Below the pieces are notes generated by a model. The model searched no databases, was not told where the DNA came from, and worked only from the letters and a program-made list of their open reading frames with translations. The translations under genes were made by a program, and so were the position numbers. 64,000 nt of DNA, from UHGV virus genome UHGV-0171999; one strand, given 5' to 3'. The stretch is from a virus. Positions 4,289 through 64,000 of this stretch are shown one piece after another; positions within the stretch are counted from its first letter, which is position 1; each line of letters starts with the position of its first letter.

Positions 4289-4603
4289 ATGAAAACTTTC
4301 AAAGAATTTACTTCTACAACTACCCCGGTTTCTACTATTACTGAAGCTACTCTTACTTCTGAAGTTATTAAAGCAAATAAAGGACGAGAAGGTAAACCAA
4401 TGATTAGTTTGGTTGATGGTGAAGAAATCAAAGGTACTGTTTACCTAGGCGATGGATGGTCTGCTAAAAGGATGGTGCTACAATCGTTATCTCTCCTGCT
4501 GAAGAAACTGCGTTGTTTAAAGCTAAACACATTTCTGCGGCACATCTCAAGATTATTGCTAAAAATCTTTTGTAATAAATATTTCACAAAGTTGTTTACA
4601 TAG
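4289..4603 (+). CDS. ipI-locus internal-protein-like gene with capsid-targeting-like leader; apparent frameshift near 4466
   Basis: N-terminus MKTFKEFT...ITEA resembles IP capsid-targeting leader; after about residue 60 the frame runs into junk through the next promoter, while another frame reads DGATIVISPAEETALFKAKHISAAHLKIIAKNLL to a stop near 4575. Confidence 0.5.
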   Translation: MKTFKEFTSTTTPVSTITEATLTSEVIKANKGREGKPMISLVDGEEIKGTVYLGDGWSAKRMVLQSLSLLLKKLRCLKLNTFLRHISRLLLKIFCNKYFTKLFT

Positions 4604-4623
4604 GGTTTTAGTTGTGATACTAT
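4594..4623 (+). promoter_or_regulatory. T4 early promoter
   Basis: TTTCACAAAGTTGTTTACA...TACTAT consensus. Confidence 0.6.
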
Positions 4624-4651
4624 TACCCTATCAACTACCGAGGAGAATAAA

Positions 4652-5509: not shown

Positions 5510-5606
5510 ATATGCTTTAAGAATTATTTGTTATTATTAACTCATATCGCACTGATTAATACCCTCTATCATCAAGGGTTCTTGCTTGAGAGCCTTTGTT
5601 AATAAT

Positions 5607-5679
5607 TGGGAATTAGCCAAGTTGGTAAGGCACTGGATTTTGATTCCAGGATGCAAAGGTTCGAGTCCTTTATTCCCAG
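5607..5679 (+). tRNA. tRNA-Gln (anticodon UUG)
   Basis: Manual cloverleaf: acceptor TGGGAAT/ATTCCCA, anticodon loop TTTTGAT, T-loop TTCGAGT. Confidence 0.8.
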
Positions 5680-5680
5680 C

Positions 5681-5767
5681 GCGAGAATGGTCAAATTGGT
5701 AAAGGCACAGCACTTAAAATGCTGCGGAATGATTTCCTTGTGGGTTCGAGTCCCACTTCTCGCACCA
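5681..5767 (+). tRNA. tRNA-Leu (anticodon UAA), long variable arm, encoded CCA
   Basis: Acceptor GCGAGAA/TTCTCGC, anticodon loop CTTAAAA, long extra arm. Confidence 0.8.
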
Positions 5768-5772
5768 AATTT

Positions 5773-5846
<74 letters not shown>

Positions 5847-5856
5847 ATTTAATTTA

Positions 5857-5931
5857 CTCCGTGTAGCTCAATGGCAGAGCGATCGCCTGTTAAGCGATTG
5901 GTTATAGGTTCGAATCCTATCACGTCCGCCA
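5857..5931 (+). tRNA. tRNA-like gene, anticodon GUU (Asn-type), acceptor stem mismatched as read; possible pseudo or chimeric tRNA
   Basis: Clean D-arm, anticodon arm (loop CTGTTAA) and T-arm (GGTTCGAATCC), but 5' CTCCGTG vs 3' CACGTCC leaves top three acceptor pairs unpaired. Confidence 0.45.
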
Positions 5932-5935
5932 AATC

Positions 5936-6011
5936 CGAGGCATAGCTCAGAAGGAAGAGCAAGGACCTTCTAAGTCCTAGGTCGTAGGTTCGATCCCTAC
6001 TGCCTCGACCA
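5936..6011 (+). tRNA. tRNA-Arg (anticodon UCU), encoded CCA
   Basis: Acceptor CGAGGCA/TGCCTCG, anticodon loop CTTCTAA, T-loop TTCGATC. Confidence 0.8.
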
Positions 6012-6027
6012 ATTAAGTGAGGAAAAT

Positions 6028-6378
6028 ATGAAAGGTAATGTTTATTTAGTAGTTCATGATTTAACGTTCTATTTTAATCACAATGACACTGTTATTTCTG
6101 AACGTGTAATTAATTTGCTTTATCAGCATGCAGATTATGTTTATGTCGAAAACGAATATGGTCATTGGCAATTTCTCAAAAATCGTTCATTTGGTTTAGA
6201 TGGTTACGAATACTTTGAACGTAAAGACCTTTTAGATAAAATTCCGTTATCTACACAATATCAAAATCATAAGTCTTTATATAAATGCCGTCCAATTCGA
6301 AATGCTGAATCCGCGTATGAAGCAATTGATTTATGGCGTAAACGCCGTGAACAGATTGATTCTTTAAAAGAATATTAA
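6028..6378 (+). CDS. hypothetical protein
   Basis: 116-aa ORF with GTGAGGAAAA Shine-Dalgarno immediately after tRNA-Arg. Confidence 0.6.
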   Translation: MKGNVYLVVHDLTFYFNHNDTVISERVINLLYQHADYVYVENEYGHWQFLKNRSFGLDGYEYFERKDLLDKIPLSTQYQNHKSLYKCRPIRNAESAYEAIDLWRKRREQIDSLKEY

Positions 6379-6382
6379 GAAA

Positions 6383-6716: not shown

Positions 6717-6850
6717 TGGTATCTAGGCCTTTCTGGACCTCTCTAGGCATCATTTAGTTTCTACCCTTTATAATATATTATCCTATCCTTTAATTGCCCC
6801 TTTCATCCCTAGAATTCCCTAAAACTTTTTAAAAAATTTTTCACAAAACT

Positions 6851-6880
6851 GTTTACACCCCTGTTCTTCCATGGTACTAT
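6851..6880 (+). promoter_or_regulatory. T4 early promoter, member of a repeated promoter-leader cassette
   Basis: GTTTAC...TGGTACTAT; near-identical to cassettes near 22594, 24033 and 48545. Confidence 0.65.
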
Positions 6881-6911
6881 ACAACTATCAACTACTGATA
6901 CAGAAAACAAC

Positions 6912-7187
6912 TTGGAGAATGAAATGGATAATTACGGCGAACTGTTCAACTTCTTTATGAAATGCGTTTCAGAAGATTTCGGTCGTACAGTGAATGATAT
7001 TAAAGTTATCGGTCCTGACCATCCGATGTTTGAAACTTACGCAGTAATGGGTAATGAAGATGGTCAGTGGTATACTGTAAAGGTTGTGATTAACATGTTC
7101 ACTGCTGAAGGTTATGTTAAACTGTCTTCTAAAGTTTACCATGATAACGACGAAATCGCAGAAGAATATTTCAATAATATGAAATAA
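6912..7187 (+). CDS. hypothetical protein
   Basis: 91-aa ORF after early promoter and GGAGAA Shine-Dalgarno. Confidence 0.6.
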   Translation: MENEMDNYGELFNFFMKCVSEDFGRTVNDIKVIGPDHPMFETYAVMGNEDGQWYTVKVVINMFTAEGYVKLSSKVYHDNDEIAEEYFNNMK

Positions 7188-7291
7188 GTTTACATAGGCT
7201 CATGATTGAGATATTATGAGCCTATAACTTGATGATAGAGTATAATACTACTTTTACGGATTTTAAATCTTAATCAACCTAAGGAAATACT

Positions 7292-7885
7292 ATGAACACA
7301 CTGAAGAAAATTGTTGAGTTTATTCGCACTAAACTTGGTTCTGCTATGGCTAAAAATTTATCTGTTGAAGAACAGTATACTGCTGCAGCAGCAAAACTAC
7401 TTGATAAAATTAAAGACCTAAAAACTGCTTCTGTTAAATCTATTAATGAAGAAAAACGTATTCGTGAACTTATTGTCGAAAAGAATCGACAGGCCGAATC
7501 AAAAGAGCGTGAAATTCGCAAGCTTCTTTCCGAAGGTCAAGATGTAACAATGCATGCTAAACTCGGCTTGCTATATCGTCGAACAGCTGAGCAGTTGACT
7601 ACTAAAGCTGATGGTTATGCTGAAATGCGAATTGAAATCGCCAAGAAAGTAGTTGAATTGGATGATGCTCGCCAAGAACTTGCAGTTAAATTGGAATATA
7701 TCCGTGAAACTCGTGCAGCAAATGCCCTTGGAATTAGTACTGCTGATGATGTAGTTGAAATTGCAGCGCTGACTAAGGTTGATATTGAAGATACTCTTGC
7801 TCGAGTTGAAACCTTTAATGGCAATATTTCTGGGGTTGAAACTACCTCTGCCGATGTTCAGGAATATATTAATTCTTTGAAATAA
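7292..7885 (+). CDS. hypothetical coiled-coil protein
   Basis: 197-aa ORF rich in heptad-like charged repeats; AAGGAAA Shine-Dalgarno. Confidence 0.6.
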
Positions 7886-10159: not shown

Positions 10160-10962
<803 letters not shown>

Positions 10963-10963
10963 T

Positions 10964-10993
10964 GTTTACTTCCTCCAAGGACTTTGATACTAT
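10964..10993 (+). promoter_or_regulatory. T4 early promoter upstream of denV
   Basis: GTTTAC, 18-nt spacer, TACTAT. Confidence 0.6.
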
Positions 10994-11020
10994 ACATTCA
11001 TCAACTACTTGGAGGAAATT

Positions 11021-11434
11021 ATGACTCGTATCAATTTAACACTTGTTTCTGAATTGACCGACCAACATCTTATGGCTGAGTATCGTGAATTACCACGCGT
11101 ATTTGGTGTAGTTCGTAAACATGTTCAAAACGGTAAACGTGTAAAGGATTTTAAAATCTCTCCAACATTTATCTTAGGCACAGGTCACGTAACATTCTTT
11201 TACGACAAACTCGAATTTTTACGTTTACGTCAAATCGAGCTAATCACTGAATGCTTGAAACGTGGTTTCAAAATCAAGGACACGACTGTCCAGGATATTT
11301 CCGACATCCCTGCCGAATTTCGTAATAATTATGTCCCGTCCGAAGCGTCCATTGCGATAAGTCAAGCACGCTTAGATGAAAAAATTGCTCAACGTCCTAC
11401 TTGGTACAAATACTATGGTAAATCAATCTACTAA
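11021..11434 (+). CDS. denV: endonuclease V (pyrimidine dimer DNA glycosylase)
   Basis: [29 protein letters not shown]... matches remembered T4 endo V; 137 aa. Confidence 0.95.
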
Positions 11435-11440
11435 GGAAAA

Positions 11441-11701
11441 ATGAAAATGTATCAAGAATTTATCATTGAAGCAGATGCCAAAGGTCCTAAATTTAAAGTT
11501 AAAGCTTTCATTGGTGATGCGGAAGACTTTGGCTCATTAAAACGTAATGGGTATTTTTTCTTAGGTGGCGATGGTAAAGAAATCAACACCTATGCAAAAC
11601 GTAGTGAAATTGCTTATGTTGTAGCAAGCCCTAAAGTAGATGTTGACGATATTGGATATGATTTTAACAACTTCGGAATTATTTCTGGCGGTAAAGCTTA
11701 A
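11441..11701 (+). CDS. ipII: internal protein II-like
   Basis: MKMYQEFIIEADAKG leader; size and position after denV. Confidence 0.6.
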   Translation: MKMYQEFIIEADAKGPKFKVKAFIGDAEDFGSLKRNGYFFLGGDGKEINTYAKRSEIAYVVASPKVDVDDIGYDFNNFGIISGGKA

Positions 11702-11704
11702 ATT

Positions 11705-11734
11705 GTTTACGCTTAAGTATTAATATGGTATAAT
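11705..11734 (+). promoter_or_regulatory. T4 early promoter
   Basis: GTTTAC, 18-nt spacer, TGGTATAAT. Confidence 0.65.
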
Positions 11735-11764
11735 TACTCTATCAAAACAAACAAGGAAACAAAA

Positions 11765-12343
11765 ATGAAAACGTATAAAGAATTTATCGCCGAGGCCTTT
11801 GCAGGAAAAGCTCAAGGTATTAATAAGGACGAGTGGACTTATCGTGGTGGAAACGGCTTTGACCCTAAAACTGCTCCACTTGAACGATATCTAGCCACAA
11901 AAGCTTCTGATTTTAAAGCCTTCGCTTGGGAAGGACTTCGCTGGCGTAACGATCTAAATATTGAAGTTGACGGACTTAAATTTGCTCATATTGAAGATGT
12001 TGTTGCTAGTAACTTAGACGCAGCTTTTGTTAAAGCCGACAGTGACCTTCGTCGCTGGAATTTAAAACTGTTCTCTAAACAAAAAGGCCCGAAGTTTGTG
12101 CCTAAAGCAGGTAAATGGGTTATTGATAATAAATTAGCTAAGGCTGTCAACTACGCCGGTCTTGAATTTGCCAAGCATAAATCATCATGGAAAGGTCTTG
12201 ATGCAATGGCTTTCCGTAAAGAATTTGCCGATGTTATGGCTAAAGGCGGCTTTAAGGCAGAAATAGATACCTCTAAAGGTACGTTTAAAGACGCTAATGT
12301 TCAGTACGCTTACGCCGTTGCTAATGCGGCCCGTGGTAATTAA
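11765..12343 (+). CDS. ipIII: internal protein III-like
   Basis: MKTYKEFIAEAFAGK leader; 192 aa close to T4 IPIII size. Confidence 0.65.
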   Translation: MKTYKEFIAEAFAGKAQGINKDEWTYRGGNGFDPKTAPLERYLATKASDFKAFAWEGLRWRNDLNIEVDGLKFAHIEDVVASNLDAAFVKADSDLRRWNLKLFSKQKGPKFVPKAGKWVIDNKLAKAVNYAGLEFAKHKSSWKGLDAMAFRKEFADVMAKGGFKAEIDTSKGTFKDANVQYAYAVANAARGN

Positions 12344-12523
12344 TAAGGCCTATACTTAGGCCTATTTACATTCAAATAACATGGGAACAAGCTGGACTTC
12401 ATGATTCTGTGAGGGATTCCCGCCAACCTATAATAAGGTCGAGCCCAAGTGCGGTAATGGGTAAATACAGAAATGGACAATTCATGCGCCATGGAATGGC
12501 CCAAATTTAGAGAGAATAAAATG

Positions 12524-14574: not shown

Positions 14575-15036
14575 ATGACTATCAACACAGAAGTTTTTAT
14601 CCGTCGAAATAAGCTCCGTCGTCACTTTGAGTCGGAGTTTCGTCAAATTAACAATGAGATTCGTGAGGCATCAAAAGCAGCAGGGGTCTCATCGTTTCAT
14701 CTAAAATATTCTCAACATCTTCTTGATCGTGCAATTCAACGGGAGATTGATGAGACATATGTTTTTGAATTATTCCATAAAATAAAAGACCATGTTTTAG
14801 AAGTTAATGAATTCCTGAGTATGCCTCCGCGTCCTGACATTGACGAGGATTTTATCGATGGGGTTGAATATCGTCCTGGGCGTTTAGAAATCACAGATGG
14901 AAATCTTTGGCTTGGATTTACAGTTTGTAAACCTAACGCGAAGTTCAAAGACCCGTCACTTCAATGTAGGATGGCCATTATCAACAGCCGTCGTTTACCA
15001 GGAAAGGCTTCTAAAGCAGTAATTAAAACTCAATGA
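14575..15036 (+). CDS. regB: endoribonuclease RegB
   Basis: MTINTEVFIRRNKLRRHFESEFRQ...; 153 aa as T4 RegB. Confidence 0.85.
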   Translation: MTINTEVFIRRNKLRRHFESEFRQINNEIREASKAAGVSSFHLKYSQHLLDRAIQREIDETYVFELFHKIKDHVLEVNEFLSMPPRPDIDEDFIDGVEYRPGRLEITDGNLWLGFTVCKPNAKFKDPSLQCRMAIINSRRLPGKASKAVIKTQ

Positions 15037-18683: not shown

Positions 18684-18706
18684 AGTCTCCTTCGGGAGAC
18701 TTTTTT
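18684..18706 (+). terminator. intrinsic terminator, UUCG-tetraloop hairpin plus T-run
   Basis: AGTCTCCTTCGGGAGACTTTTTT. Confidence 0.7.
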
Positions 18707-18716
18707 CATTTTACCG

Positions 18717-18746
18717 GTTTACTTTCCATTTGAGCTGTGATACTAT
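18717..18746 (+). promoter_or_regulatory. T4 early promoter
   Basis: GTTTAC, 18-nt spacer, TACTAT. Confidence 0.6.
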
Positions 18747-19741: not shown

Positions 19742-20008
19742 GTGAGCTTTCCGAAATTAGAAGTAGGTGATTTAGTCTTAACAAAATTGTGGAATGATAC
19801 TCAATCAGTAGAAATCTGCCAATATCGTGGAGCAACAGGTAATTTGATGTACACGATTTATAATCCAGAAATTTTGTTAGAGTGTCATTTGGAACGCTTT
19901 ATAAAAGATACTGATAGTATGCCTTATAGTGTATCGATTGTACGTAAATCTAATACGAAGGAATACTCTAAAATTTTAGAACAAATTCATGCCAATAAAA
20001 AGGATTAA
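19742..20008 (+). CDS. hypothetical protein (start uncertain, possibly GTG)
   Basis: Track ORF 19730..20008; in-frame GTG after GGTGA. Confidence 0.4.
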   Translation: MSFPKLEVGDLVLTKLWNDTQSVEICQYRGATGNLMYTIYNPEILLECHLERFIKDTDSMPYSVSIVRKSNTKEYSKILEQIHANKKD

Positions 20009-20009
20009 T

Positions 20010-20540
20010 ATGAAACGATTAGTATTAGAAGTTAGTCCGCTTTTTGGTGAATTGGCTATAGAAAAAGTAAATAACATGTATCGTTTGACGCAAGAAGACG
20101 ATATGCTATATTTTACGCCTAGTGAAATCATTCATTTAACCCAAATTGAATATCCTTATACCGATAAAATAGTAAGCATTAATGATGAGCATAAAATTCA
20201 TTTTTATTCTTCATGTCCAGGATTTAATATTAAAAGTGAGTCGATGTGTTTATCAGTTATCCATTGGGATAGTTTTATAGATAAGATTAAATATTTTTAT
20301 TATTCTAATGAAAGAAAACATAATTTAAAATGGTTTAAAAATTGCAATGCTATTATTACTAACGCTTGTAATCAAAATTATGAAACTGTTTTAGATGTAT
20401 CAAAATGCTATGAAGAGGGAGATGTCATAACTATTCGTCAATCGGTAAATGATGTTAATGTTGTTGTATTAAACAAAGAAGAAGCTGTTTTATTAAAGAC
20501 TTATCTTGATTCTGTCATTCCAACTATGGTTTCAAAGTGA
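20010..20540 (+). CDS. hypothetical protein, tandem paralog A
   Basis: AAGGA Shine-Dalgarno; C-terminus LKTYLDSVIPTMVSK similar to the next ORF. Confidence 0.55.
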   Translation: MKRLVLEVSPLFGELAIEKVNNMYRLTQEDDMLYFTPSEIIHLTQIEYPYTDKIVSINDEHKIHFYSSCPGFNIKSESMCLSVIHWDSFIDKIKYFYYSNERKHNLKWFKNCNAIITNACNQNYETVLDVSKCYEEGDVITIRQSVNDVNVVVLNKEEAVLLKTYLDSVIPTMVSK

Positions 20541-20546
20541 GGAAAT

Positions 20547-21068
20547 ATGTTTATTTCAAGTGGAAGCGGTTTAATTCGTGTTGAATTTAAAAATGACATC
20601 TTCCTTATTCAAGGAGATGATATTATTAAAATGAGCTATGATGAAATCAAGAAAATTTGTCATGCTCTTGAAAGTCATGGAAAGGAAAATGCTACTATCG
20701 ATATAGGTGATTTATGGGTGACACTCTATGAAGTATCCGAAGGATTTAACATTGAAGATGAAAACAACATCTTAGCTATTGATAAAAGAAGCGATTTGTT
20801 TGACGTGTTAAAAGTTTATGAACAGTCAAACGATGGAAGAAAAGCTGCATTGATTTATCAAAAACCACATTCATGTGGAACTGCTTCAATCATTTCAGAT
20901 ATTGAAGATGAAACTGATACTTATATGTGTGTTTTAAAAGCTGGTGGTGACCGTCATCCGGATTTTATTTCTATTCGTCAAAACAATGGAGAAATTTCAT
21001 TATCAAAATCAGAAGCTGAAGCTATGATTAAGTATTTAACAACTGTTACACCTTCAATGAAAGGATAA
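20547..21068 (+). CDS. hypothetical protein, tandem paralog B
   Basis: 173 aa; C-terminus MIKYLTTVTPSMKG. Confidence 0.55.
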   Translation: MFISSGSGLIRVEFKNDIFLIQGDDIIKMSYDEIKKICHALESHGKENATIDIGDLWVTLYEVSEGFNIEDENNILAIDKRSDLFDVLKVYEQSNDGRKAALIYQKPHSCGTASIISDIEDETDTYMCVLKAGGDRHPDFISIRQNNGEISLSKSEAEAMIKYLTTVTPSMKG

Positions 21069-21070
21069 TT

Positions 21071-21532
21071 ATGATTATTAATGAAAGCTCTTGGCACTAT
21101 AAATTATTCAAAATGTTTAACGACGAATGGAAACGACCTAAGACACTGTGCGCGTATTTTTGGTCTATTGTTATCCCTACATTTTTCGTTTCTTTTTTCG
21201 GATGTACTATACTCGCAGGTCTAACTATCATCTGTGCAGAAATCATGCAGAAATGGCTTATTTTTGGTAGTTTATGGACTCTTATTCCAGCAGCATTTAT
21301 ACTTGCCATTTTGCTTGTTTTACTTATTATTGGTTCATTTGTTATTCCTGCACAACTACATGAAAAATATAAAGATTATAAATGGAAAAAGGATTATGCT
21401 TTACATGTAGAAAATATTGATAGGGCGTATAAAGGTTTACCTCCTATTCAACCCAAGAAATCTATTATCATCGAATTTTTAAAAGCGTGTAAAGCTAAAG
21501 TATGTCCTGTTATTGAATATAAGGCTGAATAA
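21071..21532 (+). CDS. membrane protein
   Basis: 153 aa with several hydrophobic segments. Confidence 0.55.
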   Translation: MIINESSWHYKLFKMFNDEWKRPKTLCAYFWSIVIPTFFVSFFGCTILAGLTIICAEIMQKWLIFGSLWTLIPAAFILAILLVLLIIGSFVIPAQLHEKYKDYKWKKDYALHVENIDRAYKGLPPIQPKKSIIIEFLKACKAKVCPVIEYKAE

Positions 21533-22542
21533 TGAAAACAGTAATGAAAAGTTATTTTGGTAGTCATCTTTATGGAACTTCTACCCCAGAATCTGATGTA
21601 GATTTTAAAGAAATTTTTGTTCCTCCTGCTCGTGATATTCTTATCGGAAATGTTAAAGAGCATATGAGTAAAAACACTAACAACACATCATCTAAAAACA
21701 CTAAAGATGATATTGACCATGAACTATATAGTCTTAAGTATTTCTTTAAATTAGCAGCAGATGGTGAAACTGTAGCATTAGATATGCTCCACACTCCACC
21801 TGCACTAGTGGTTAAATCTGATTTGCCTGATGTGTGGAAGTTTATTCAAGACAACCGTTCTCGTTTTTATACAACTAACATGAAATCCTATTTAGGATAT
21901 GTCCGTAAGCAAGCTTCTAAATATGGCGTTAAGGGTTCTCGTTTGGCTGCATTACGTGATGTATTGAAAGTAGTTAATCAAATCCCTGAGCAATGGGTTG
22001 ATTACCAAGAAGATGGTTCTATTAAACAGCGTCGCACTAAAGTTGAAGATATTAAGCATCGTCTTCCAGAGAACGAGTTCTGCGAATGGGTGTTCCATAA
22101 TCATGAGAAAACAGGTCCGCAAACGTTCTATACAGTGTTGGGTCGTAAATATCAGACAACGCTTTCTCTTATTGAGCTTAAGCAGTCACTGAACAAATTA
22201 GATGCTGAATACGGCGAACGTGCTCGTAAGGCCGAAGCTAATGAAGGTATTGACTGGAAAGCTCTGAGCCATGCTTGCCGTGGTGGACTCCAACTATTGG
22301 AAATTTACAAAACTGGTGACTTGGTTTATCCACTCCAAGATGCTCCATTTATTCTCGATGTGAAGTTGGGTAAACACCCATTTAAAACGGTCCAAGAGTT
22401 TTTGGAAGATGTGGTCGATCAAGTAGAAGCAGCATCTACTGAAGCTTCTAAGAACGGTATGCAGCAAAAAGTGGACATGGGTTTCTGGGATGACTTCCTT
22501 GAGAGGGTGTATCTCGAAAACCATCGAAGTTATTATAAATGA
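21532..22542 (+). CDS. nucleotidyltransferase-fold protein (Pol-beta superfamily motif)
   Basis: N-terminal GS-x10-DVD motif (FGSHLYGTSTPESDVDF); 336 aa. Confidence 0.55.
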   Translation: MKTVMKSYFGSHLYGTSTPESDVDFKEIFVPPARDILIGNVKEHMSKNTNNTSSKNTKDDIDHELYSLKYFFKLAADGETVALDMLHTPPALVVKSDLPDVWKFIQDNRSRFYTTNMKSYLGYVRKQASKYGVKGSRLAALRDVLKVVNQIPEQWVDYQEDGSIKQRRTKVEDIKHRLPENEFCEWVFHNHEKTGPQTFYTVLGRKYQTTLSLIELKQSLNKLDAEYGERARKAEANEGIDWKALSHACRGGLQLLEIYKTGDLVYPLQDAPFILDVKLGKHPFKTVQEFLEDVVDQVEAASTEASKNGMQQKVDMGFWDDFLERVYLENHRSYYK

Positions 22543-22544
22543 TA

Positions 22545-22568
22545 GGGAGCCTTCGGGCTCCCTTTTTT
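22545..22568 (+). terminator. intrinsic terminator, UUCG-tetraloop hairpin plus T-run
   Basis: GGGAGCCTTCGGGCTCCCTTTTTT. Confidence 0.7.
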
Positions 22569-22593
22569 ATTTCAAAATTTTTTTCACAAAACA

Positions 22594-22623
22594 GTTTACA
22601 AGCATAAAGCTTTATGGTACTAT
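22594..22623 (+). promoter_or_regulatory. T4 early promoter, repeated cassette
   Basis: TTTTTTTCACAAAACAGTTTACA...TGGTACTATACAACTATCAAC. Confidence 0.65.
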
Positions 22624-22657
22624 ACAACTATCAACTGATACGGATTTGGAGAATAAA

Positions 22658-23626
22658 ATGAAAACTGTAACTATCAATAAGGGTATCTACTTCGGTAAAG
22701 AAATCTCTGGAACTTTTGAGCTCTTAGGCGAATGGTTCCCAGATAATGCTCCGGTAGATGCACAAGGAGATGGTAAAGTTTTTGTTGAAATTGACGGTAA
22801 ACGTCGCGGTGTTTGGGTTTACAAATCAGATATTTCATATGATGGTGTAAAAGTTGAAGAAGTTAAAGAATCATATGAAGATATGAAAACCCGCATTAAT
22901 AAAAGATTTAATGTTATGGGAATGATGACGAATGGTATTATTAACGGAAACATTCGTTCATTAATTATCTCTGGCGCAGCAGGTATTGGTAAAACGTATT
23001 CTTTAGATAAAGCTTTAAATAAAGCAAATGATATTGGATACATTGAATATAAAAGCATTAATGGTAAAATCTCTGGTATTGGTCTTTATGAGCAGCTTTG
23101 GAATAATCGTGAAGAGAATTCTGTCCTTTTGATTGATGATGTGGATGTTTTTTCTGATATGGACATTCTTAATCTTCTAAAAGCCGCTCTGGACACCGGA
23201 GAGACCCGTAAAGTATGCTGGAGCACTGCATCTTCCTACTTAGAAGAAAAAGGTATTGACCGTGAGTTTGAATTTAAAGGAACGATTGTTTTTATCACAA
23301 ACGTTGACATTGACCGCGAATTAGACCGTGGTACTAAACTTGCTCCACACTTACAAGCATTAGTGTCCCGCTCAGTTTATTTGGATTTGGGTGTTCATAC
23401 TAATGAAGAAATTATGGTCAGGGTTGAAGATGTTATTCTTTCAACTGACATGATGCAAAAGCGCGGTCTTTCTGATGAAGAAACTTATAAAGCATTATCA
23501 TGGATGAAAGTTAATGTAAACCGTTTACGCAATGTTTCACTGCGTACTGCTCTTTATCTTGCTGACTTTATTATGACCGACAAAAACGGTTGGGAAGAAA
23601 TTGCTGAGGTTACTCTTCTGAAATAA
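22658..23626 (+). CDS. P-loop ATPase (AAA-like)
   Basis: Walker A SGAAGIGKT and Walker B LLIDDVD; ATG after GGAGAA; the track's upstream extension runs through the promoter and is not coding. Confidence 0.6.
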   Translation: MKTVTINKGIYFGKEISGTFELLGEWFPDNAPVDAQGDGKVFVEIDGKRRGVWVYKSDISYDGVKVEEVKESYEDMKTRINKRFNVMGMMTNGIINGNIRSLIISGAAGIGKTYSLDKALNKANDIGYIEYKSINGKISGIGLYEQLWNNREENSVLLIDDVDVFSDMDILNLLKAALDTGETRKVCWSTASSYLEEKGIDREFEFKGTIVFITNVDIDRELDRGTKLAPHLQALVSRSVYLDLGVHTNEEIMVRVEDVILSTDMMQKRGLSDEETYKALSWMKVNVNRLRNVSLRTALYLADFIMTDKNGWEEIAEVTLLK

Positions 23627-23727
23627 TTCATAAGAGGACTTCTATGACAAAAAGGCAGTTCAGAAATAGATTATATGGACTGCCATTAAAAAGATGACTA
23701 GAATTAAACTGGTGAATGGAGGTAGTG

Positions 23728-24030
23728 ATGTTATACTCAAAGGCTCGTGAAATTTACGAAACTAAAATTAAAGAAGCAGTATTTCAGTTCGCAACGACAA
23801 TGCGATGGACAAATGATTGGGAGTATTCAAAAAATCATAAGAAGCCCATGGTGACAAGAAAGGCTCATATGTTAGTGTTAATAGACCGTGAGCAGATTAA
23901 AGCCCGAGAAGCCCTCCAGAATCATAAAAAGGCTGCCTTTGAATGGTTTATGGACCACACTGCTCCTGAGACTAAGAAAGCAGTGAGCGCCTGGTTCAGT
24001 GGAAAAAATTGTGAAAGAAGTTTCTTTTAG
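23728..24030 (+). CDS. hypothetical protein
   Basis: ATG after GGAGG; 100 aa. Confidence 0.5.
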   Translation: MLYSKAREIYETKIKEAVFQFATTMRWTNDWEYSKNHKKPMVTRKAHMLVLIDREQIKAREALQNHKKAAFEWFMDHTAPETKKAVSAWFSGKNCERSFF

Positions 24031-24032
24031 TG

Positions 24033-24062
24033 GTTTACAAGACTGTTCCTCTGTGGTACTAT
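24033..24062 (+). promoter_or_regulatory. T4 early promoter, repeated cassette
   Basis: GTTTAC...TGGTACTATACAACTATCAACTACGGAGGAACA. Confidence 0.65.
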
Positions 24063-24090
24063 ACAACTATCAACTACGGAGGAACAGAAA

Positions 24091-24618
24091 ATGAACGCTA
24101 AAGATATTTTCAACTTGGTAAATTACAACGATGGTAAATTTAAATCTGAAGCACAAAGCAAGTTCTTTAATGACATCTCAATCGGAGGTGAAATCACTGT
24201 TGATGGAGGACAAATTTACAAATCACGTTGGAATTGGATCGTTATTATCGATGAGATTGGTATTGTAGAAATTTACAAGAATACGAATAAAAATCGTACA
24301 TTACACTGGTCTCGTGATACTAACGAACAGTATAAAAAGGATAAAGCATCTAAATTATCTCGTGTAACTCAAGAAGATATTGAGTTCATCAAGAAAGATA
24401 TTTTAATGTATGATAACTTAATTGCTGAAGAGCAAGCTGTTATTGATAAATTTGATGAGATTAAAGCTTCTCGTGAAATTCCTGATTTTATGAAAGAATC
24501 AGTAAATGAACGATACACTCTCATTTCAGAGCGTATTGAAACTTACAAAAAGCAAAGAGCTGAACGCCAAAATACTCTTCGGAAGTTTGAAGAACGGTTA
24601 AAGACGGTACTCGCATAA
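24091..24618 (+). CDS. hypothetical protein
   Basis: 175-aa ORF after promoter cassette and GGAGGAACA Shine-Dalgarno. Confidence 0.6.
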   Translation: MNAKDIFNLVNYNDGKFKSEAQSKFFNDISIGGEITVDGGQIYKSRWNWIVIIDEIGIVEIYKNTNKNRTLHWSRDTNEQYKKDKASKLSRVTQEDIEFIKKDILMYDNLIAEEQAVIDKFDEIKASREIPDFMKESVNERYTLISERIETYKKQRAERQNTLRKFEERLKTVLA

Positions 24619-24673
24619 CCGCTTTATACCAAGGATGGTATAATGGTTCTAAGCCCTTTTAATTGAGATTATT

Positions 24674-25081
24674 ATGAAACAGTTGATAATTAAAAGATTG
24701 AATTTATTGATATGTTGTTTATGTGTAGTAGTTGCATATGGTTATTACGCAATTAATGATTATATGCACTATAAAGATTATGATGTTACTGTAGTTAATA
24801 CTATTACAGGAACACAAGGAAAGGGGTCTAGTTTATCGTTTATTGCCGTATATGAACTTAAAGACGATTATAGATTTAGTGAATATATTTCCCCAGAGAT
24901 GTATTCTTCAATAGAAAAAGGTGATAATATTACTGTAAGTTTACGTCCTTTCGACGTAAAACAGACACTGTTTGATAATATTGTTTGGTTCTTTGGAATG
25001 GTATTAGTTCAATCCGTATGTGGCGCTTATGTAGTCTGTTCCATCTTGTTCTGTATATTTAGTAAAATTGAAATTGAGTGA
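24674..25081 (+). CDS. membrane protein
   Basis: 135 aa with hydrophobic N- and C-terminal segments. Confidence 0.55.
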   Translation: MKQLIIKRLNLLICCLCVVVAYGYYAINDYMHYKDYDVTVVNTITGTQGKGSSLSFIAVYELKDDYRFSEYISPEMYSSIEKGDNITVSLRPFDVKQTLFDNIVWFFGMVLVQSVCGAYVVCSILFCIFSKIEIE

Positions 25082-25144
25082 GGAAAATATGTCAGTAGTA
25101 ATTAATAATGTCAATGCAGTAATTAAATCTTTAGTTAATAAAAA

Positions 25145-25978
25145 ATGATGAATGAATGGACTGTATTTCGTCGTGGAGAGCCAGATAAATTTTTTCATAG
25201 ATTTAACTCAACTTTGGATTTGAATGTTATCGACAGAGATGTTCATGCAGAAATTTTAGATAAGTTTAAAGTTGATATTGGATTTGGATTAGAAAAACAT
25301 TTGCAGCGAACAAATGGGTCTGGAATGAGTTTATCTAATCGCATTATGAAAGCCCTTAATAAAATTGGAGCGTTGTCTCGTATTAACGCGAGTGAAATCC
25401 TTCGTAATTATAATAAAGGATATGACCTTTATGGTCGACTAATGCCGAAGTTATCATTTGACCAAATGATTGCAGATTTGTGGGAAAATCAACGACGATT
25501 ATTAGCATTAGGTGCTCGATTAGCTAAAGGTCTAGATAAACAAATGATTTTTAAGACCAATAATACAGAAGACCTTAAATGCTTTAAATTTAGTATTCGT
25601 GGCGATGATTATTACATCAGAGCTCGCTCTACAGATTATGTTAATATGGGTCATCATCTCTGTTTAGCCTTTGAAGTTTTAAAAGAAGCTGGAACACTAG
25701 AATATTCATCTGGTGCAAAATGCCCTATTGGCTCAAGTTGTATTTTAATTTATCGCCCGAATGAATCCAGTTCAACTACATTGCCTACGAAACCTGTACC
25801 AGTTCGTAGTAACGAAAAACATTCTGAACAAATTGATTATTTTAATAAGCAAATTGAAGAGCTGAATATTTCTATTCAACAATATGATGATGAAATTTTC
25901 AGACTATCTGGACTGAGTAGTAAAGCTAAATCTGAGCGTGAAAAGTTAATTAAAATTGTTGATTTACTTAAATCTTAA
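25145..25978 (+). CDS. hypothetical protein with C-terminal coiled coil
   Basis: 277-aa ORF. Confidence 0.55.
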   Translation: MMNEWTVFRRGEPDKFFHRFNSTLDLNVIDRDVHAEILDKFKVDIGFGLEKHLQRTNGSGMSLSNRIMKALNKIGALSRINASEILRNYNKGYDLYGRLMPKLSFDQMIADLWENQRRLLALGARLAKGLDKQMIFKTNNTEDLKCFKFSIRGDDYYIRARSTDYVNMGHHLCLAFEVLKEAGTLEYSSGAKCPIGSSCILIYRPNESSSTTLPTKPVPVRSNEKHSEQIDYFNKQIEELNISIQQYDDEIFRLSGLSSKAKSEREKLIKIVDLLKS

Positions 25979-25986
25979 GGAACACC

Positions 25987-26334
25987 ATGAAAACTCGTTC
26001 TCAAATTGAAGATATGGTTCGTAATGCCAGCTATACTCGTGATGTTATGACATTTTTGTGTCAAAATAATTTAGACCCTGATAAAGTTAATCGTGATATT
26101 CACTTTAAATATATGAATAGCAGTGAATGGTTACGTCATTTTAGTAAAGCGGGGTATATTACACAAATGACTGCTCGTGAGCAGCTCACCGATTTCTGTA
26201 AAACTATTGATTATAAAAATCCTCTATTTGTTCAGGCGTTGGTCAGAGTAAGGTTGATTTATCATCTGGATTTTTTAATCCAAATCATTATCGTATTGAA
26301 TGGAGATTTATTGCTCTATTCCGTAAACAATTAA
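25987..26334 (+). CDS. 5' portion of an apparently frameshifted gene
   Basis: Protein-like to about residue 95, then junk (LDFLIQIIIVLNGDLLLYSVNN); shift near a T-run around 26271. Confidence 0.45.
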   Translation: MKTRSQIEDMVRNASYTRDVMTFLCQNNLDPDKVNRDIHFKYMNSSEWLRHFSKAGYITQMTAREQLTDFCKTIDYKNPLFVQALVRVRLIYHLDFLIQIIIVLNGDLLLYSVNN

Positions 26335-39928: not shown

Positions 39929-41613
39929 AGAATTTTAAACTTAATAGAGTAAAATATAAAAATATAATGTCAGTTGGTCAAAATGGGATTGACATTCAAT
40001 TAGATAAGGTTCAAAAAACTCTTATTACTGGACGAAATGGCGGTGGTAAGTCTACTATGTTAGAAGCCATCACATTCGGGCTTTTTGGCAAGCCATTCCG
40101 TGATGTAAAGAAAGGTCAATTAATAAACAGCACAAATAAGAAAGAACTTTTAGTTGAACTGTGGATGGAATATGATGAGAAAAAGTACTATATCAAAAGA
40201 GGACAAAAACCAAATGTTTTCGAAATCACCGTTAACGGTACACGTCTTAATGAATCTGCCAGCAGTAAAGATTTCCAAGCAGAATTTGAACAGCTTATCG
40301 GAATGTCATATGCCAGTTTCAAACAGATCGTCGTACTCGGCACGGCTGGATATACCCCTTTTATGGGCCTATCCACTCCTGCAAGAAGAAAGCTTGTCGA
40401 AGACCTGCTCGAGGTAGGAACATTAGCTGAAATGGATAAGCTTAATAAAGCACTAATACGTGAATTAAATTCACAGAACCAAGTGCTTGATGTTAAAAAA
40501 GATAGTATTATCCAACAAATTAAAATATATAATGATAACGTTGAACGCCAGAAAAAATTAACTGGTGATAACCTTACTCGTCTACAGAATATGTATGATG
40601 ATTTGGCAAAAGAAGCCAGAACGTTAAAATCGGAAATAGAAGAAGCTAATGAAAGATTAGTTAATATTGTTTTGGATGAAGACCCGACTGATGCATTTAA
40701 TAAAATCGGTCAAGAAGCATTTTTAATTAAATCAAAAATTGACTCGTATAATAAAGTCATTAATATGTATCACGAAGGTGGATTATGTCCAACCTGTTTG
40801 TCACAATTAAGTTCCGGCGATAAAGTTGTTTCTAAAATTAAAGATAAAGTTTCTGAATGCACGCATTCGTTTGAACAGCTTTCAACACATCGTGATAATT
40901 TAAAAGTTCTTGTTGATGAATACCGAGATAATATTAAAACCCAGCAGACGTTGGCGAATGATATTCGCAATAAAAAGCAATCTCTAATCACGACGGTAGA
41001 TAAAGCTAAAAAAGTTAAAGCAGCTATAGAAAAGGCATCATCTGAGTTTATTGACCATGCTGATGAAATAGCACTGCTTCAAGAAGAACTTGATAAAATT
41101 GTTAAGACAAAAACTAATTTAGTAATGGAAAAATACCACAGAGGAATTTTGACTGACATGCTCAAAGATTCTGGTATTAAAGGTGCTATTATTAAAAAGT
41201 ACATTCCATTATTTAATAAGCAGATTAACCATTATCTTAAAATAATGGAAGCGGATTATGTGTTTACATTAGATGAAGAATTTAATGAGACAATTAAATC
41301 CCGTGGTCGTGAAGATTTTAGTTATGCTTCATTTAGTCAAGGTGAAAAAGCACGAATTGATATTGCTCTTTTATTTACTTGGCGTGATATTGCTGAAAAA
41401 GTTTCAGGTGTTAAAATAAGTTGTTTATTTCTTGATGAAGTGTATGACGGTGCATTTGATGCTGAAGGTATTAAAAATGTGGCTAAAATTTTAGATGGTT
41501 TGAAGAATACCAACTTCTTCATAATTTCGCATAAAGACCATGACCCACAGGAATATGGTCAGCACATTCAAATGGAAAAAGTTGGTAGATTTAGTTTAGC
41601 TAAGATTAGTTAG
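39925..41613 (+). CDS. 46: recombination endonuclease subunit gp46 (Rad50/SbcC-like ATPase)
   Basis: Walker A GRNGGGKST, coiled coil with CPTC hook, C-terminal FLDEVYDG; apparent GTG start; 562 aa. Confidence 0.9.
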   Translation: MKNFKLNRVKYKNIMSVGQNGIDIQLDKVQKTLITGRNGGGKSTMLEAITFGLFGKPFRDVKKGQLINSTNKKELLVELWMEYDEKKYYIKRGQKPNVFEITVNGTRLNESASSKDFQAEFEQLIGMSYASFKQIVVLGTAGYTPFMGLSTPARRKLVEDLLEVGTLAEMDKLNKALIRELNSQNQVLDVKKDSIIQQIKIYNDNVERQKKLTGDNLTRLQNMYDDLAKEARTLKSEIEEANERLVNIVLDEDPTDAFNKIGQEAFLIKSKIDSYNKVINMYHEGGLCPTCLSQLSSGDKVVSKIKDKVSECTHSFEQLSTHRDNLKVLVDEYRDNIKTQQTLANDIRNKKQSLITTVDKAKKVKAAIEKASSEFIDHADEIALLQEELDKIVKTKTNLVMEKYHRGILTDMLKDSGIKGAIIKKYIPLFNKQINHYLKIMEADYVFTLDEEFNETIKSRGREDFSYASFSQGEKARIDIALLFTWRDIAEKVSGVKISCLFLDEVYDGAFDAEGIKNVAKILDGLKNTNFFIISHKDHDPQEYGQHIQMEKVGRFSLAKIS

Positions 41614-42322
41614 GTTTATATTTACAATTATCATTATGCCATCTTGATAAATTTCCGAAAGTGGTAACTTTACCACAATGGACGCAAGTACCAGTCTTTT
41701 CAGTTTTCTTGCGTCCATTTGGATTTTTCTTGCAGAAATTTCTATGCGCTGCGATAACGCATTTCTTGCCTATCATTCCGCAGAATTCGCAGGATGTTTC
41801 TTCAAGAACGATTGCTTTAAGCCCGTTTGAGATATTATTTCTGTGTTCTTTAGACATTGGCGGTCTAACTTTAGGATTGGGGTGATTTGGGCAGTTATCA
41901 AAATGCCATCGATTCATATTCCCGCTTAATCCAGACTTACCGCAATGTGGACAAGTTAGTCTTGCTTTATTAGCTACTGCATCGGACATTTTCTTTCGTG
42001 TCTCTTGGGAGAACTCTTTATTCTTTTCTATTTCCCAGAGTTTACGACGAATCCAGCCGAAAGTTTTATTGTTGCGTTTAGCGTATTTCGTAGAAACTGT
42101 CATCATGTTAGCAGCATAGACTAATTTTGGTTCAGAAGGATAAATTTTTACTAAAAGTTGATGAGCTACATAGTGCTCTTCTGGTGTTAAATCTACTAAG
42201 TTTGAAGCATCATCGCTACCATTTAAACAGCGTGGTATAATGTGATGAGATTCAGTATAGCAATCAAGTTTTCGAGATTTAGCATTAGAGATTAACTTTT
42301 CGTAAATTAGTTTATAATTCAT
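41606..42322 (-). mobile_element. free-standing HNH homing endonuclease gene (mob-like), antisense to early genes
   Basis: HNH motif ESHHIIPRCLNGSDDASNLVDLTPEEH plus repeated CPHCG/CEFCG/CVHCG zinc-finger-like modules; convergent 8-nt overlap with gene 46. Confidence 0.75.
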
Positions 42323-42355
42323 AACATATCCTTTTGATACAGCGAGTGATAAACA

Positions 42356-42363
42356 TATTTATA
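42356..42363 (-). promoter_or_regulatory. T4 late promoter TATAAATA on minus strand, upstream of the HNH gene
   Basis: + strand TATTTATA about 34 nt upstream of the HNH start codon. Confidence 0.55.
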
Positions 42364-42373
42364 CGGAGGAACT

Positions 42374-42565
42374 GTGGCAGAATATTCAACTGGACAGCAT
42401 CTATTAACTATTCCTGAAATAAAACGATATATTCTGAGAAATAATTTTTCTAATGAAGAGCATATAGTTACTGAATCTATGCTTAAGAATGCATTTAAAG
42501 CAGAATATACGAAAATAATGTCCAACAGAAATGAAGCTTGGACTGTTACTGATTATTATGACTAA
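42374..42565 (+). CDS. hypothetical protein (45.2-like)
   Basis: 63-aa ORF, GTG start after GGAGGA. Confidence 0.55.
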   Translation: MAEYSTGQHLLTIPEIKRYILRNNFSNEEHIVTESMLKNAFKAEYTKIMSNRNEAWTVTDYYD

Positions 42566-48439: not shown

Positions 48440-48461
48440 AGGGACCTCCGGGTCCCTTTTT
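48440..48461 (+). terminator. intrinsic terminator, tetraloop-type hairpin plus T-run
   Basis: AGGGACCTCCGGGTCCCTTTTT. Confidence 0.7.
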
Positions 48462-48544
48462 CATACAAGTAATATAAATCTATACTTAGGAAAAATAGAT
48501 GATTCTAGGTCCTGTAAATTCATTAAAATTTTTTTCACAAAACT

Positions 48545-48574
48545 GTTTACATCCCTGTTCTTCCATGGTACTAT
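48545..48574 (+). promoter_or_regulatory. T4 early promoter, repeated cassette
   Basis: Near-identical to the 6851 cassette: TTCACAAAACTGTTTACA...TGGTACTATACAACTATCAACTACGGAGGAACA. Confidence 0.65.
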
Positions 48575-48602
48575 ACAACTATCAACTACGGAGGAACACA
48601 AA

Positions 48603-48854
48603 ATGAAAAATATTCAAACTAATTTTATTCAAAATTTAAAAGTTGTTAATGCAGAAAAAGCTAATAAACTCTTTAAAGTTAAAGAATTCGAAAATGAAGG
48701 TAATACTTATGGTATTATAGAACAAAATGGAATGGTGACTGGATTAGAAATTTATATTGGCAAAGGAAAATTTCAGTCACAGCCAATTTCTGTTATGGGT
48801 GTAAGAAAAGGAATTAAAATTGAAGATGCTTTAAAATTATTTGCTAAGTTTTAA
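48603..48854 (+). CDS. hypothetical protein
   Basis: ATG after GGAGGAACA; the track's upstream extension runs through promoter and terminator; 83 aa. Confidence 0.55.
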   Translation: MKNIQTNFIQNLKVVNAEKANKLFKVKEFENEGNTYGIIEQNGMVTGLEIYIGKGKFQSQPISVMGVRKGIKIEDALKLFAKF

Positions 48855-60437: not shown

Positions 60438-60465
60438 AAGGACTCCTCCGGGAGTCCTTTTTCAT
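60438..60465 (+). terminator. intrinsic terminator, hairpin plus T-run
   Basis: AAGGACTCCTCCGGGAGTCCTTTTT. Confidence 0.7.
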
Positions 60466-60472
60466 TTTACCG

Positions 60473-60502
60473 GTTTACTTTCCAAAATGAGTATGGTATA
60501 AT
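60473..60502 (+). promoter_or_regulatory. T4 early promoter
   Basis: GTTTAC, 18-nt spacer, TGGTATAAT. Confidence 0.65.
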
Positions 60503-63254: not shown

Positions 63255-63853
63255 AATATTCAGCAATGCAATTAAAAGATTTTAAAATCAAATCAATGGA
63301 TGCATCGGTGCGTGCTTCTATTCGTGAAGAATTACTTTCTGAAGGATTTAATTTATCCGAAATTGAACTTTTAATTCATTGTATTACTAATAAGCCAGAC
63401 GATCATTCTTGGTTAAATGAAATAATCAAATCTCGTTTGGTTCCAAACGATAAACCTCTTTGGAGAGGTGTTCCAGTTGAGACTAAGCAGGTGTTAAATC
63501 AAGGAATTGATATTATTACATTTGATAAAGTAGTATCAGCTTCATATGATAAAAATATAGCTCTACATTTTGCTTCTGGATTAGAATACAACACGCAAGT
63601 TATTTTTGAATTCAAAGCTCCTATGGTGTTTAATTTCCAGGAGTATGCTATAAAAGCTCTACGTTGTAAAGAATATAGTCCGAGTTTTAAATTTCCGGAT
63701 AGCCATCGTTATCGTAATATGGAATTAGTTTCAGATGAACAAGAAGTAATGATACCAGCTGGAAGTGTATTTAGAATTGCGGATAGATATGAGTATAAAA
63801 AGTATTCAACATACACTATCTATACTCTTGATTTTGAAGGATTTAATCTATAA
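63251..63853 (+). CDS. modA: ADP-ribosyltransferase ModA
   Basis: LWRG, SAS, EQEVMIP motifs; 200 aa as T4 ModA. Confidence 0.8.
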   Translation: MKYSAMQLKDFKIKSMDASVRASIREELLSEGFNLSEIELLIHCITNKPDDHSWLNEIIKSRLVPNDKPLWRGVPVETKQVLNQGIDIITFDKVVSASYDKNIALHFASGLEYNTQVIFEFKAPMVFNFQEYAIKALRCKEYSPSFKFPDSHRYRNMELVSDEQEVMIPAGSVFRIADRYEYKKYSTYTIYTLDFEGFNL

Positions 63854-63855
63854 TG
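63792..63855 (+). repeat. direct repeat copy 1 (3' end of modA)
   Basis: 55 nt identical to 63946-64000, about 64 nt with two mismatches. Confidence 0.7.
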
Positions 63856-63909: not shown

Positions 63910-63939
63910 GTTTACAAGCTGAAGTAAAAATGTTATAGT
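63910..63939 (+). promoter_or_regulatory. T4 early promoter between the two repeat copies
   Basis: CATAAAGTTGTTTACA, about 18-nt spacer, TATAGT. Confidence 0.55.
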
Positions 63940-64000
63940 ATAAGTAGTATTCAACATACACTATCTATACTCTTGATTTTGAAGGATTTAATCTATAATG
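63937..64000 (+). repeat. direct repeat copy 2 (duplicate of modA 3' end; window ends here)
   Basis: Identical to 63801-63855. Confidence 0.7.

Follow-up and report, generated by a model that had tools for sequence, protein, structure and literature searches.

The early promoters of phage T4 combine an UP element, a -35 region, a TGn motif and a -10 region with extra consensus regions (PMC2988021). In T4-type phages, early promoters also occur in repeated cassettes, the promoter-early stem-loops (PeSLs), which were described for RB49 and phi1 (Arbiol 2010, PMC2839356), and then for PST/T4 and nt-1/KVP40 (Comeau 2014, PMC4122927). The PST/T4 PeSLs follow the consensus TTTACW-N17-TAYWAT, with an A/T-rich upstream part, and with a Shine-Dalgarno (SD) sequence and ATG at the 3' end (PMC4122927). 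In some PeSL classes, the stem-loop overlaps the promoter (PMC2839356). The authors of both studies have linked PeSLs to indels and replacements, including the exchange of ndd.4 and ndd.5 in T4 (PMC2839356, PMC4122927). Here, we compare these systems with a family of four repeated promoter cassettes in the UHGV virus genome UHGV-0171999, of which a stretch of 64,000 nucleotides (the window) was analysed. We consider it very probable that the four cassettes form a family of T4-type early promoters, used by the host sigma-70 polymerase at the onset of infection, and that they double as homology patches for exchange.

Four cassettes with an identical promoter core

The window represents a Tequatrovirus (T4-like) genome. 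Positions 20000-26000 are 96-97% identical to many Tequatrovirus genomes, and the window is collinear with T4 (NC_000866) from 78.2 kb down to 11.8 kb, on the minus strand of T4. Therefore, the early genes are found on the + strand of the window.

The 21-mer TGGTACTATACAACTATCAAC is present in four exact copies in the whole window, all of them on the + strand, at positions 6872, 22615, 24054 and 48566 (copies A to D). The chance expectation, judged by 100 dinucleotide-preserving shuffles, is none. A search of the window that tolerated up to three mismatches did not return any match beyond the four exact ones, which therefore form a discrete set within the window. A separate repeat search identified the same family in the form of 77-nt units. 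Compared to the reference unit at 6822-6898, the units at 48516-48592, 24004-24080 and 22565-22641 are 91%, 73% and 70% identical, respectively, and a looser member of the family at 4565-4641 is 66% identical. The repetition of the cassette at four loci, which had been claimed in the initial annotation, is thus borne out by the exact copies, by their absence from the shuffles, and by the independently found 77-nt family.

The initial annotation had also placed one shared block before the open reading frames (ORFs) at 6912, 22658, 24091 and 48603. This is correct for the core, which is present in all four copies, but not for the flanks. The upstream block TTTTTCACAAAACWGTTTACA is exact in three copies only (at 6837, 22580 and 48531). 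It is absent from copy C at 24033, where the coding 3' end of nrdC.9 occupies the stretch, and has relatives with three mismatches at 4580 and 63896. Only copies C (24075) and D (48587) have the leader TACGGAGGAACA, before the ATG codons at 24091 and 48603. Copies A (6893) and B (22636) have another leader, (TAC)TGATACRGA...TTGGAGAATRAAATG, before the ATG codons at 6924 and 22658. We refer to the leader of copies A and B as type 1, and to the leader of copies C and D as type 2. As direct repeats, copies B and C are separated by 1,439 bp.

All four copies have the core of a T4 early promoter (Pe), with GTTTACA as the -35 region, a variable stretch of 15 nt, and TGG-TACTAT as the extended -10 region (Table 1). 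Counted from TTTACA, the spacer is 17 bp long. Further downstream, each copy continues with the discriminator ACAACT, the start region ATCAAC, a leader of 22-37 nt that contains GGAG, and the ATG. The UP regions are A/T-rich throughout. Those of copies A, B and D contain AAAATTTTTTTCACAAAAC, and that of copy C has another sequence, which belongs to the coding end of nrdC.9. The -35 region of copy C begins only 2 nt past the nrdC.9 stop codon. The predicted +1 position is the A seven bases downstream of the -10 region, and therefore only the last six bases of TGGTACTATACAACTATCAAC would be transcribed. Judged by these motifs, the invariant core would essentially be the promoter segment in which RNA polymerase opens the DNA and begins transcription. 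The four promoters would drive e.8, nrdC.10, nrdC.8, and the gene that comes first behind the terminator of gene 43.

Table 1. Coordinates of the promoter cassettes and associated features in the window
Feature	Position	Strand	Parts	T4 counterpart
Copy A, e.8 promoter	6826..6926	+	UP element with TTTTTCACAAAACT; -35 GTTTAC 6851-6856; TGG and -10 TACTAT 6872-6880; predicted +1 A 6887; leader type 1, GGAGAATGAAA 6914-6924; ATG 6924; no stem-loop	orthologous to T4 70675
Copy B, nrdC.10 promoter	22570..22660	+	UP element; -35 22594-22599; -10 TACTAT 22618-22623; predicted +1 22630; leader type 1, GGAGAATAAAA 22648-22658; ATG 22658	orthologous to T4 55363
Copy C, nrdC.8 promoter	24033..24093	+	-35 24033-24038; -10 24057-24062; predicted +1 24069; leader type 2, GGAGG 24078-24082; ATG 24091	orthologous to T4 53922
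Copy D, promoter of the variable slot after gene 43	48520..48605	+	UP element; -35 48545-48550; -10 48569-48574; predicted +1 48581; leader type 2, GGAGG 48590-48594; ATG 48603	orthologous to T4 27059
15-bp inverted repeat around -10/+1 of copy C	24043..24087	+	arms CTGTTCCTCTGTGGT (24043-24057) and ACTACGGAGGAACAG (24073-24087)	
Intrinsic terminator after nrdC.11	22544..22569	+	8-bp stem AGGGAGCC/GGCTCCCT, UUCG loop, T6 run	
Intrinsic terminator after gene 43	48440..48461	+	AGGGACC-UCCG-GGUCCCU and T-run	
Slot D cargo in this phage	48603..48854	+	83-aa ORF, unknown function, PHROG 18567	

Elements of this kind have been described before, and T4 has the very same copies. T4 carries the identical 21-mer at the four orthologous, collinear sites (Table 1), so that every copy has a T4 early promoter as its orthologue. 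Two further exact copies in T4 are located before motA (163652) and ndd.6 (167065), which brings the T4 total to six. In addition, there are approximately five near copies, with two mismatches (frd.3), three mismatches (cef and denV), or four mismatches (ndd.4 and mobD.5). The T4 early promoters of e.8, nrdC.10, nrdC.8, imm.1 and motA share the positions, the 21-nt core and the architecture including the CTATCA start region with the cassettes described here, and differ by a few bases in the UP element and spacer. The T4 coordinate 27,044, which has been given as the upstream boundary of the region located downstream of the early promoters Pe26.4, Pe20.3 and Pe19.8 (PMC6024815), is the base equivalent to the predicted +1 A of copy D. 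A 233-nt query around copy D matched 3,623 places in 550 phage records, or about 6-7 per genome.

Relation to other early promoters of the window

For comparison, we used 21 early-promoter-like sites before genes in the window (the four copies and 17 others), with 84 aligned positions. The mean identity over the 84 nt is 0.69 among the four copies (0.85 for copies A and D), 0.47 between the copies and the 17 others, and 0.44 among the others themselves. The core sets the four apart, with no mismatches within the family, and at least four in every other early promoter of the window. The spacers of copies A and D match at 14 of 15 positions, compared to a mean of 4.8 (standard deviation 2.1) for all pairs. 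Copies no closer to each other than to unrelated early promoters would have spoken against the initial annotation, and the identities, the core and the A-D spacer match show that this outcome did not arise. The copies are a tight sub-family inside a promoter class with a long consensus.

The long consensus raises the question whether selection for one optimal strong promoter alone could have produced the copies, independently or convergently, and without shared descent or a role in recombination. In favour of this explanation, TTTCACAAA-GTTTAC and the CTATCA after the -10 region recur in many other early promoters of the window, and the consensus nnnncTATCA after the -10 region is found in 10-13 of 16 non-family promoters. 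Moreover, the positions are conserved between this phage and T4, and extra consensus regions have been noted in Hinton's review (PMC2988021). However, the likeness continues into the spacer, for which base-specific contacts are not expected, as the comparison of copies A and D illustrates. Likewise, the frd.3 (146854) and nrdC.10 copies of T4, which are 91 kb apart, have about 75 nt in common, including the T-run of the terminator, the UP element, and the spacer in full. Together with the exchanges described below, these data make selection alone an improbable explanation, and we prefer the interpretation that the copies are related by descent and exchange.

Conservation and exchange in related genomes

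We tabulated 33 instances of the exact core from nine genomes, namely the window, T4, T2, Shfl2, and five T4-like genomes from IMG/VR. As the instances were chosen by an exact-core search, the count is biased. A further scan of IMG/VR with the 15-mer TATAGACCTATCAAC, which was too short, gave mostly chance matches, and only T4-like genomes with multiple hits were used from it. At sites A, B and C, and at the motA and denB-side sites, the spacer is site-specific and stable between genomes. Therefore, the copies at these sites are conserved orthologous promoters, and not recently transposed units.

The slot after gene 43 (slot D) stands out in that the small genes found there differ between related phages. 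There is no extra ORF in T4, an 83-aa ORF in this phage and in T2, and an unrelated 78-aa ORF in Shfl2-type phages. Among phage records, 31 have the 83-aa ORF and 326 have the 78-aa ORF, in every case at a single place in the genome. The promoters in front of the slot differ as well. T4 has a spacer that resembles a hybrid of types C and A, followed by a type 1 leader, and runs straight into imm.1. In T2, spacer, core and leader are those of the nrdC.8 copy, with about 58 identical nt through the ATG, and the 83-aa ORF follows. In the window, the spacer is of type A, the leader is of the nrdC.8 type, and the 83-aa ORF is that of T2. In Shfl2 and four IMG/VR genomes, A-type or other spacers are combined with a type 1 leader and the 78-aa ORF. 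Thus, spacer type, leader type and cargo assort independently at slot D, which requires crossovers inside the invariant core and the leader.

Similar junctions are present elsewhere. The denB-side copy is followed by ndd.6 in T4, and by another ORF in other genomes. In one genome (L032), the homology upstream of nrdC.10 stops exactly at the SD sequence, with a different promoter-hairpin and a different small ORF upstream. Indel or replacement junctions beside small genes of unknown function, as reported for PeSLs, are therefore seen at slot D, at site B of L032, and at the denB-side copy. Smaller changes affect the cassettes themselves. In a genome with a 100% identical nrdC.8 protein, the core of copy C has five clustered changes (TGGTATTATTACCCTATCAAC), in an otherwise identical spacer and leader. 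TGGTATTATTACCCTATCAAC is one base away from the core of the T4 ndd.4 promoter. Conversely, a C-type spacer, core and leader are found at the ndd.4-like site of a further genome. These swaps look like short conversion patches between paralogous cassettes. The published ndd.4/ndd.5 exchange involves members of the present cassette family.

As shown by the genome comparison, related phages differ by swaps of genes or promoters with junctions inside the cassettes, and short patches appear to have been exchanged between paralogous copies. Because distant sites have 21-77 bp in common, the cassettes would serve as homology patches for phage recombination. The gene swap junctions inside cassettes, the identity of the T2 copy D with the nrdC.8 copy, and the clustered five-base swap within identical flanks are further points against selection for an optimal promoter as the only cause of the likeness.

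Alternatively, the core could be exact because a dedicated factor of the phage acts on it, for example a site-specific recombinase, a nuclease, or a shut-off regulator of an immediate-early sub-class. The core is exact in the 33 instances from nine genomes, in at most ten contexts of site and cargo, although the selection by exact core biases this number. Moreover, other lineages have a multi-copy core of their own (TGATACTATAGACCTATCAAC, at at least seven loci in a JS98-like genome). The mechanism of early promoter shut-off is said to be incompletely understood (PMC3014915), and a helper protein has been speculated about by Arbiol et al. (PMC2839356). On the other hand, nothing in the window points to a recombinase, and the core is made up of precisely those elements (TGn, -10, discriminator and start) that RNA polymerase itself reads. 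According to the discussion by Arbiol et al. (PMC2839356), short homology suffices for T4 recombination. Other cores are also tolerated at orthologous sites, as distant relatives (nrdC.8 proteins with 68-85% amino-acid identity) have a promoter at the same place, with other cores. A dedicated factor is thus very unlikely, and the core is better understood as the part of an early promoter that is read by RNA polymerase.

Comparison with PeSL cassettes

The initial annotation had likened the cassettes to the mobile PeSLs of T4-type phages. With respect to the features that can be read from sequence, apart from the stem-loop, the likeness is complete. The cassettes are repeated early promoters (four in the window, six exact and approximately five near copies in T4) that conform to the PST/T4 consensus, with A/T-rich upstream parts, an SD sequence and ATG at the 3' end, neighbouring small genes of unknown function, and indel or replacement junctions, and some of them are associated with stem-loops. 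However, the term mobile appears overstated, since the four copies are at their T4 positions and have site-specific spacers. What moves is the cargo beside the cassettes and short patches within them, and the cassettes are positionally conserved crossover points. With these data, the published view of conserved promoter cassettes as linkers in the modular exchange of genes among T4-type phages gains some examples, and is otherwise unchanged.

The main difference from the published elements concerns the stem-loop. Only copy B has it directly upstream, as drawn for the PST PeSLs. In copy D, a stem-loop is located approximately 85 nt upstream, and there is a weak hairpin that brackets the -10 region. 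Copy C has a bracket hairpin only, and copy A has neither. The hairpins that overlap the promoters of the copies would fit the PeSL classes in which the stem-loop lies over the promoter.

A second sub-family of promoters with stem-loops is also present in the window. Its two members at 18687-18728 and 60443-60484 are 41.8 kb apart and 93% identical over 42 nt, and consist of the hairpin CTCCTTCGGGAG (or CTCCTCCGGGAG), a T-run, and CATTTTACCGGTTTACTTTCCA. The first is located after rI.-1 and before a mobD.5-like gene, the second after soc and before an mrh.2-like gene.

Predicted hairpins around the -10 region

Long transcripts of the T4 genes e, soc, 49 and I-TevI conceal the ribosome site (PMC3014915). 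Copy C has a comparable inverted repeat (Table 1). The loop of the predicted hairpin holds the -10 region and the predicted start, and the 3' arm holds the GGAGG of the SD sequence. For the read-through RNA, a folding energy of -25.4 kcal/mol was calculated (z-score -5.4), which was not reached in any of 200 shuffles. All nine bases of the SD region are paired in this RNA, and the RNA from the predicted +1 is unstructured (minimum free energy 0). Hence, by predicted fold, copy C has both a paired SD region and a start inside the hairpin, as in the four T4 genes. A weaker hairpin is predicted for copy D, where 48556-48569 pairs with 48585-48598 (-13.9 kcal/mol, z -2.6).

The predicted folds suggest a pairing of spacer and leader in copy C, which is weaker in copy D, so that RNA reading through from upstream would hide the ribosome site, and RNA begun at the promoter of the copy itself would expose it. 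There is no + strand terminator between copies B and C, and therefore transcripts from copy B should carry the whole copy C hairpin. From the modelled structures, we infer a function of the hairpin at copy C. The hairpin of copy C resembles those of T4 e, soc, 49 and I-TevI in that a stem (of 15 bp in copy C) joins upstream sequence and SD sequence, with the predicted start in the loop, and that only RNA from the gene's own promoter would be open. The T4 cases differ in having a late internal promoter (I-TevI) or a gene that is expressed late, whereas copy C would be an early promoter in an early unit.

The hairpin at copy C appears to be retained in diverged orthologues of the nrdC.8 promoter. 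The arm sequences are different, but a hairpin around the -10 region is still predicted, with the stem AUCUCCAGUAG/CUACUGGAGGU in one genome (L035, z -4.1), and with a different 11-bp stem in another (L031, z -3.6). As the arms are in different registers, the orthologues were folded one by one. Among the 21 early promoters of the window, seven, including those of regB and after e.8, have bracket hairpins with z-scores of -3.9 or below against mononucleotide shuffles.

The promoter right after e.8 (7185-7292) is contained in a 13-bp hairpin around its -10 region (ATAGGCTCATGAT/ATTATGAGCCTAT, -21 kcal/mol, z -7). In T4, e.7 is found behind this promoter. The window lacks e.7, and has about 50 nt of unrelated sequence and then e.6. 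The junction directly follows the hairpin. In JS98-like and related IMG/VR genomes (L048, L073 and L046), many early promoters have a spacer (ATCTCCTGTAGG) and a leader (CTACAGGAGAT) that are complementary to each other. The pair flanks the core TGATACTATAGACCTATCAAC, and the T4 denV promoter (T4 65393) has the same design. Because the JS98-like lineages and T4 denV share this design, bracket hairpins that hide the SD sequence seem to be widespread.

The reading of copy C as an early promoter in a hairpin that is kept in diverged orthologues is mildly new, as are the lineage-specific multi-copy cores. Tentatively, one may go further and ask whether the 21-nt core marks a co-regulated immediate-early sub-class (motA, e.8, nrdC.10, nrdC.8, the slot after gene 43, and ndd.6) that is homogenised by short-patch ectopic conversion, separately for the core of each Tevenvirinae lineage, with a cassette-borne switch based on spacer-leader hairpins in copies C and D and in approximately one third of the other early promoters of the window, by which only transcripts from the promoter of the gene itself would be translated. 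We regard this extended model as possible, but rather doubtful. If true, it would represent an early-gene version of the e/soc/49/I-TevI hairpin switch, which travels with the cassette during gene shuffling.

Putative RegB sites in the leaders

The strong RegB sites in T4 early leaders follow the consensus GG*AGRAYARAA (PMC3014915). The type 1 leader agrees with this consensus in 11 of 11 positions in copy B, and in 10 of 11 positions in copy A. It may thus contain a strong RegB cleavage site, which would give a burst of expression, followed by a cut-off. The regB gene itself is located inside the window (14575-15036), and its own SD sequence (14565) is a RegB site with one mismatch, as in T4.

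Arguments against the proposed reading

Several points weigh against the interpretation of the cassettes as a defined promoter family with a role in exchange. Most of the copies (A, B, C, and the copy before motA) act as conserved orthologous promoters rather than as mobile units, and the assortment at slot D could result from ordinary allelic recombination of co-infecting phages, and not from ectopic events. Over the full length, the separation from other early promoters is not clean, with an identity of 0.60 between copies B and C, versus 0.63 of the promoter at 4594 to copies A and D. The family is thus not sharply bounded at full length, and only the 21-nt core separates the four. As read-through RNA, copies A and B do not fold differently from shuffled sequences and do not form a promoter hairpin (for copy A, z-scores range from +0.4 to +0.8). 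The leaders of copies C and D (GGAGGAACA) are a poor fit to the strong RegB consensus. Finally, promoter activity, start sites and RegB cleavage are inferred from T4 for this phage.

Terminators, gene starts and downstream products

According to the initial annotation, two of the cassettes directly follow a tetraloop terminator. This is the case for copy B, where the hairpin at 22544-22563 (GGGAGCC-TTCG-GGCTCCC and T-run, -16.4 kcal/mol, z -3.55) abuts the UP element. The hairpin at 48440-48457, with a UCCG loop (-13.9 kcal/mol, z -2.9), is approximately 60 nt upstream of the UP element of copy D, and approximately 85 nt before its -35 region, and hence not directly adjacent. No hairpin was found upstream of the -35 regions of copies A (6851) and C (24033). 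The terminator hairpins ahead of copies B and D would insulate both from upstream transcription.

In practice, the cassettes are of use mainly for annotation, as they fix the true starts of the four genes behind them (ATG 6924, 22658, 24091 and 48603). The start at 6912 in the initial annotation has to be revised. The TTG at this position is inside the SD sequence, and the first ORF (e.8) begins with the ATG at 6924, as its 87-aa product fits T4 e.8 and PHROG 2678. By contrast, the initial annotation was right to consider the N-terminal extensions of the ORFs at 22490 and 48420 as artefacts. Both run through a stretch free of stop codons, with a terminator and a promoter in it, and the T4/T2 annotation and the PHROG profiles start at the ATG codons 22658 and 48603. 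In a T4-like genome, the cassettes also mark borders of transcription units.

The cargo genes of the cassettes are all of unknown function. In T4, ndd.6 and imm.1 have the same first four codons ATGAAAATCGCT behind the same leader. This could be taken as a hint of segmental duplication of whole genes, in which case the promoters would be alike because the genes behind them are paralogues. However, the repeat family stops at the leader, and the products behind copies A to D belong to four unrelated PHROG families (2678, 1250, 2274 and 18567, respectively). Pfam and PHROG scans of the four downstream genes did not identify a shared Pfam domain or a common function, and gave only weak, sub-threshold AAA-type matches for nrdC.10. 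Because the downstream genes fall in four unrelated families, we rejected segmental gene duplication, which has next to no probability.

Other features of the window

The Rfam scan of the whole window at gathering scores identified five tRNAs only, and no match for the cassettes. The tRNAs form a cluster at 5600-6380. Approximately 0.6 kb of the T4 tRNA/segB region is missing from the window, and 5881-6378 does not align with T4.

The remaining differences from T4 concern gene content and order. In the internal-protein region (10680-12360), the order is e, denV (79% to T4), an 86-aa ORF and ipIII, compared to e, ipIII, ipII and denV in T4, and the genes each have their own early promoter (10964, 11705). 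No T4 match was found for 20565-21528, where other ORFs (173 and 153 aa) take the place of the T4 homing endonuclease gene mobD. On the - strand, a 238-aa ORF (41606-42322) separates gene 46 from rpbA, which have only 45.2 between them in T4. The stretch 41593-42380 has no T4 counterpart. This ORF may be an inserted gene, for example for a homing endonuclease. A 64-nt direct repeat (63792-63855 and 63937-64000, 97% identical, 145 nt apart) covers the end of a modA-like gene in its first copy. The second copy is located just after the promoter at 63910, and reaches the end of the window.

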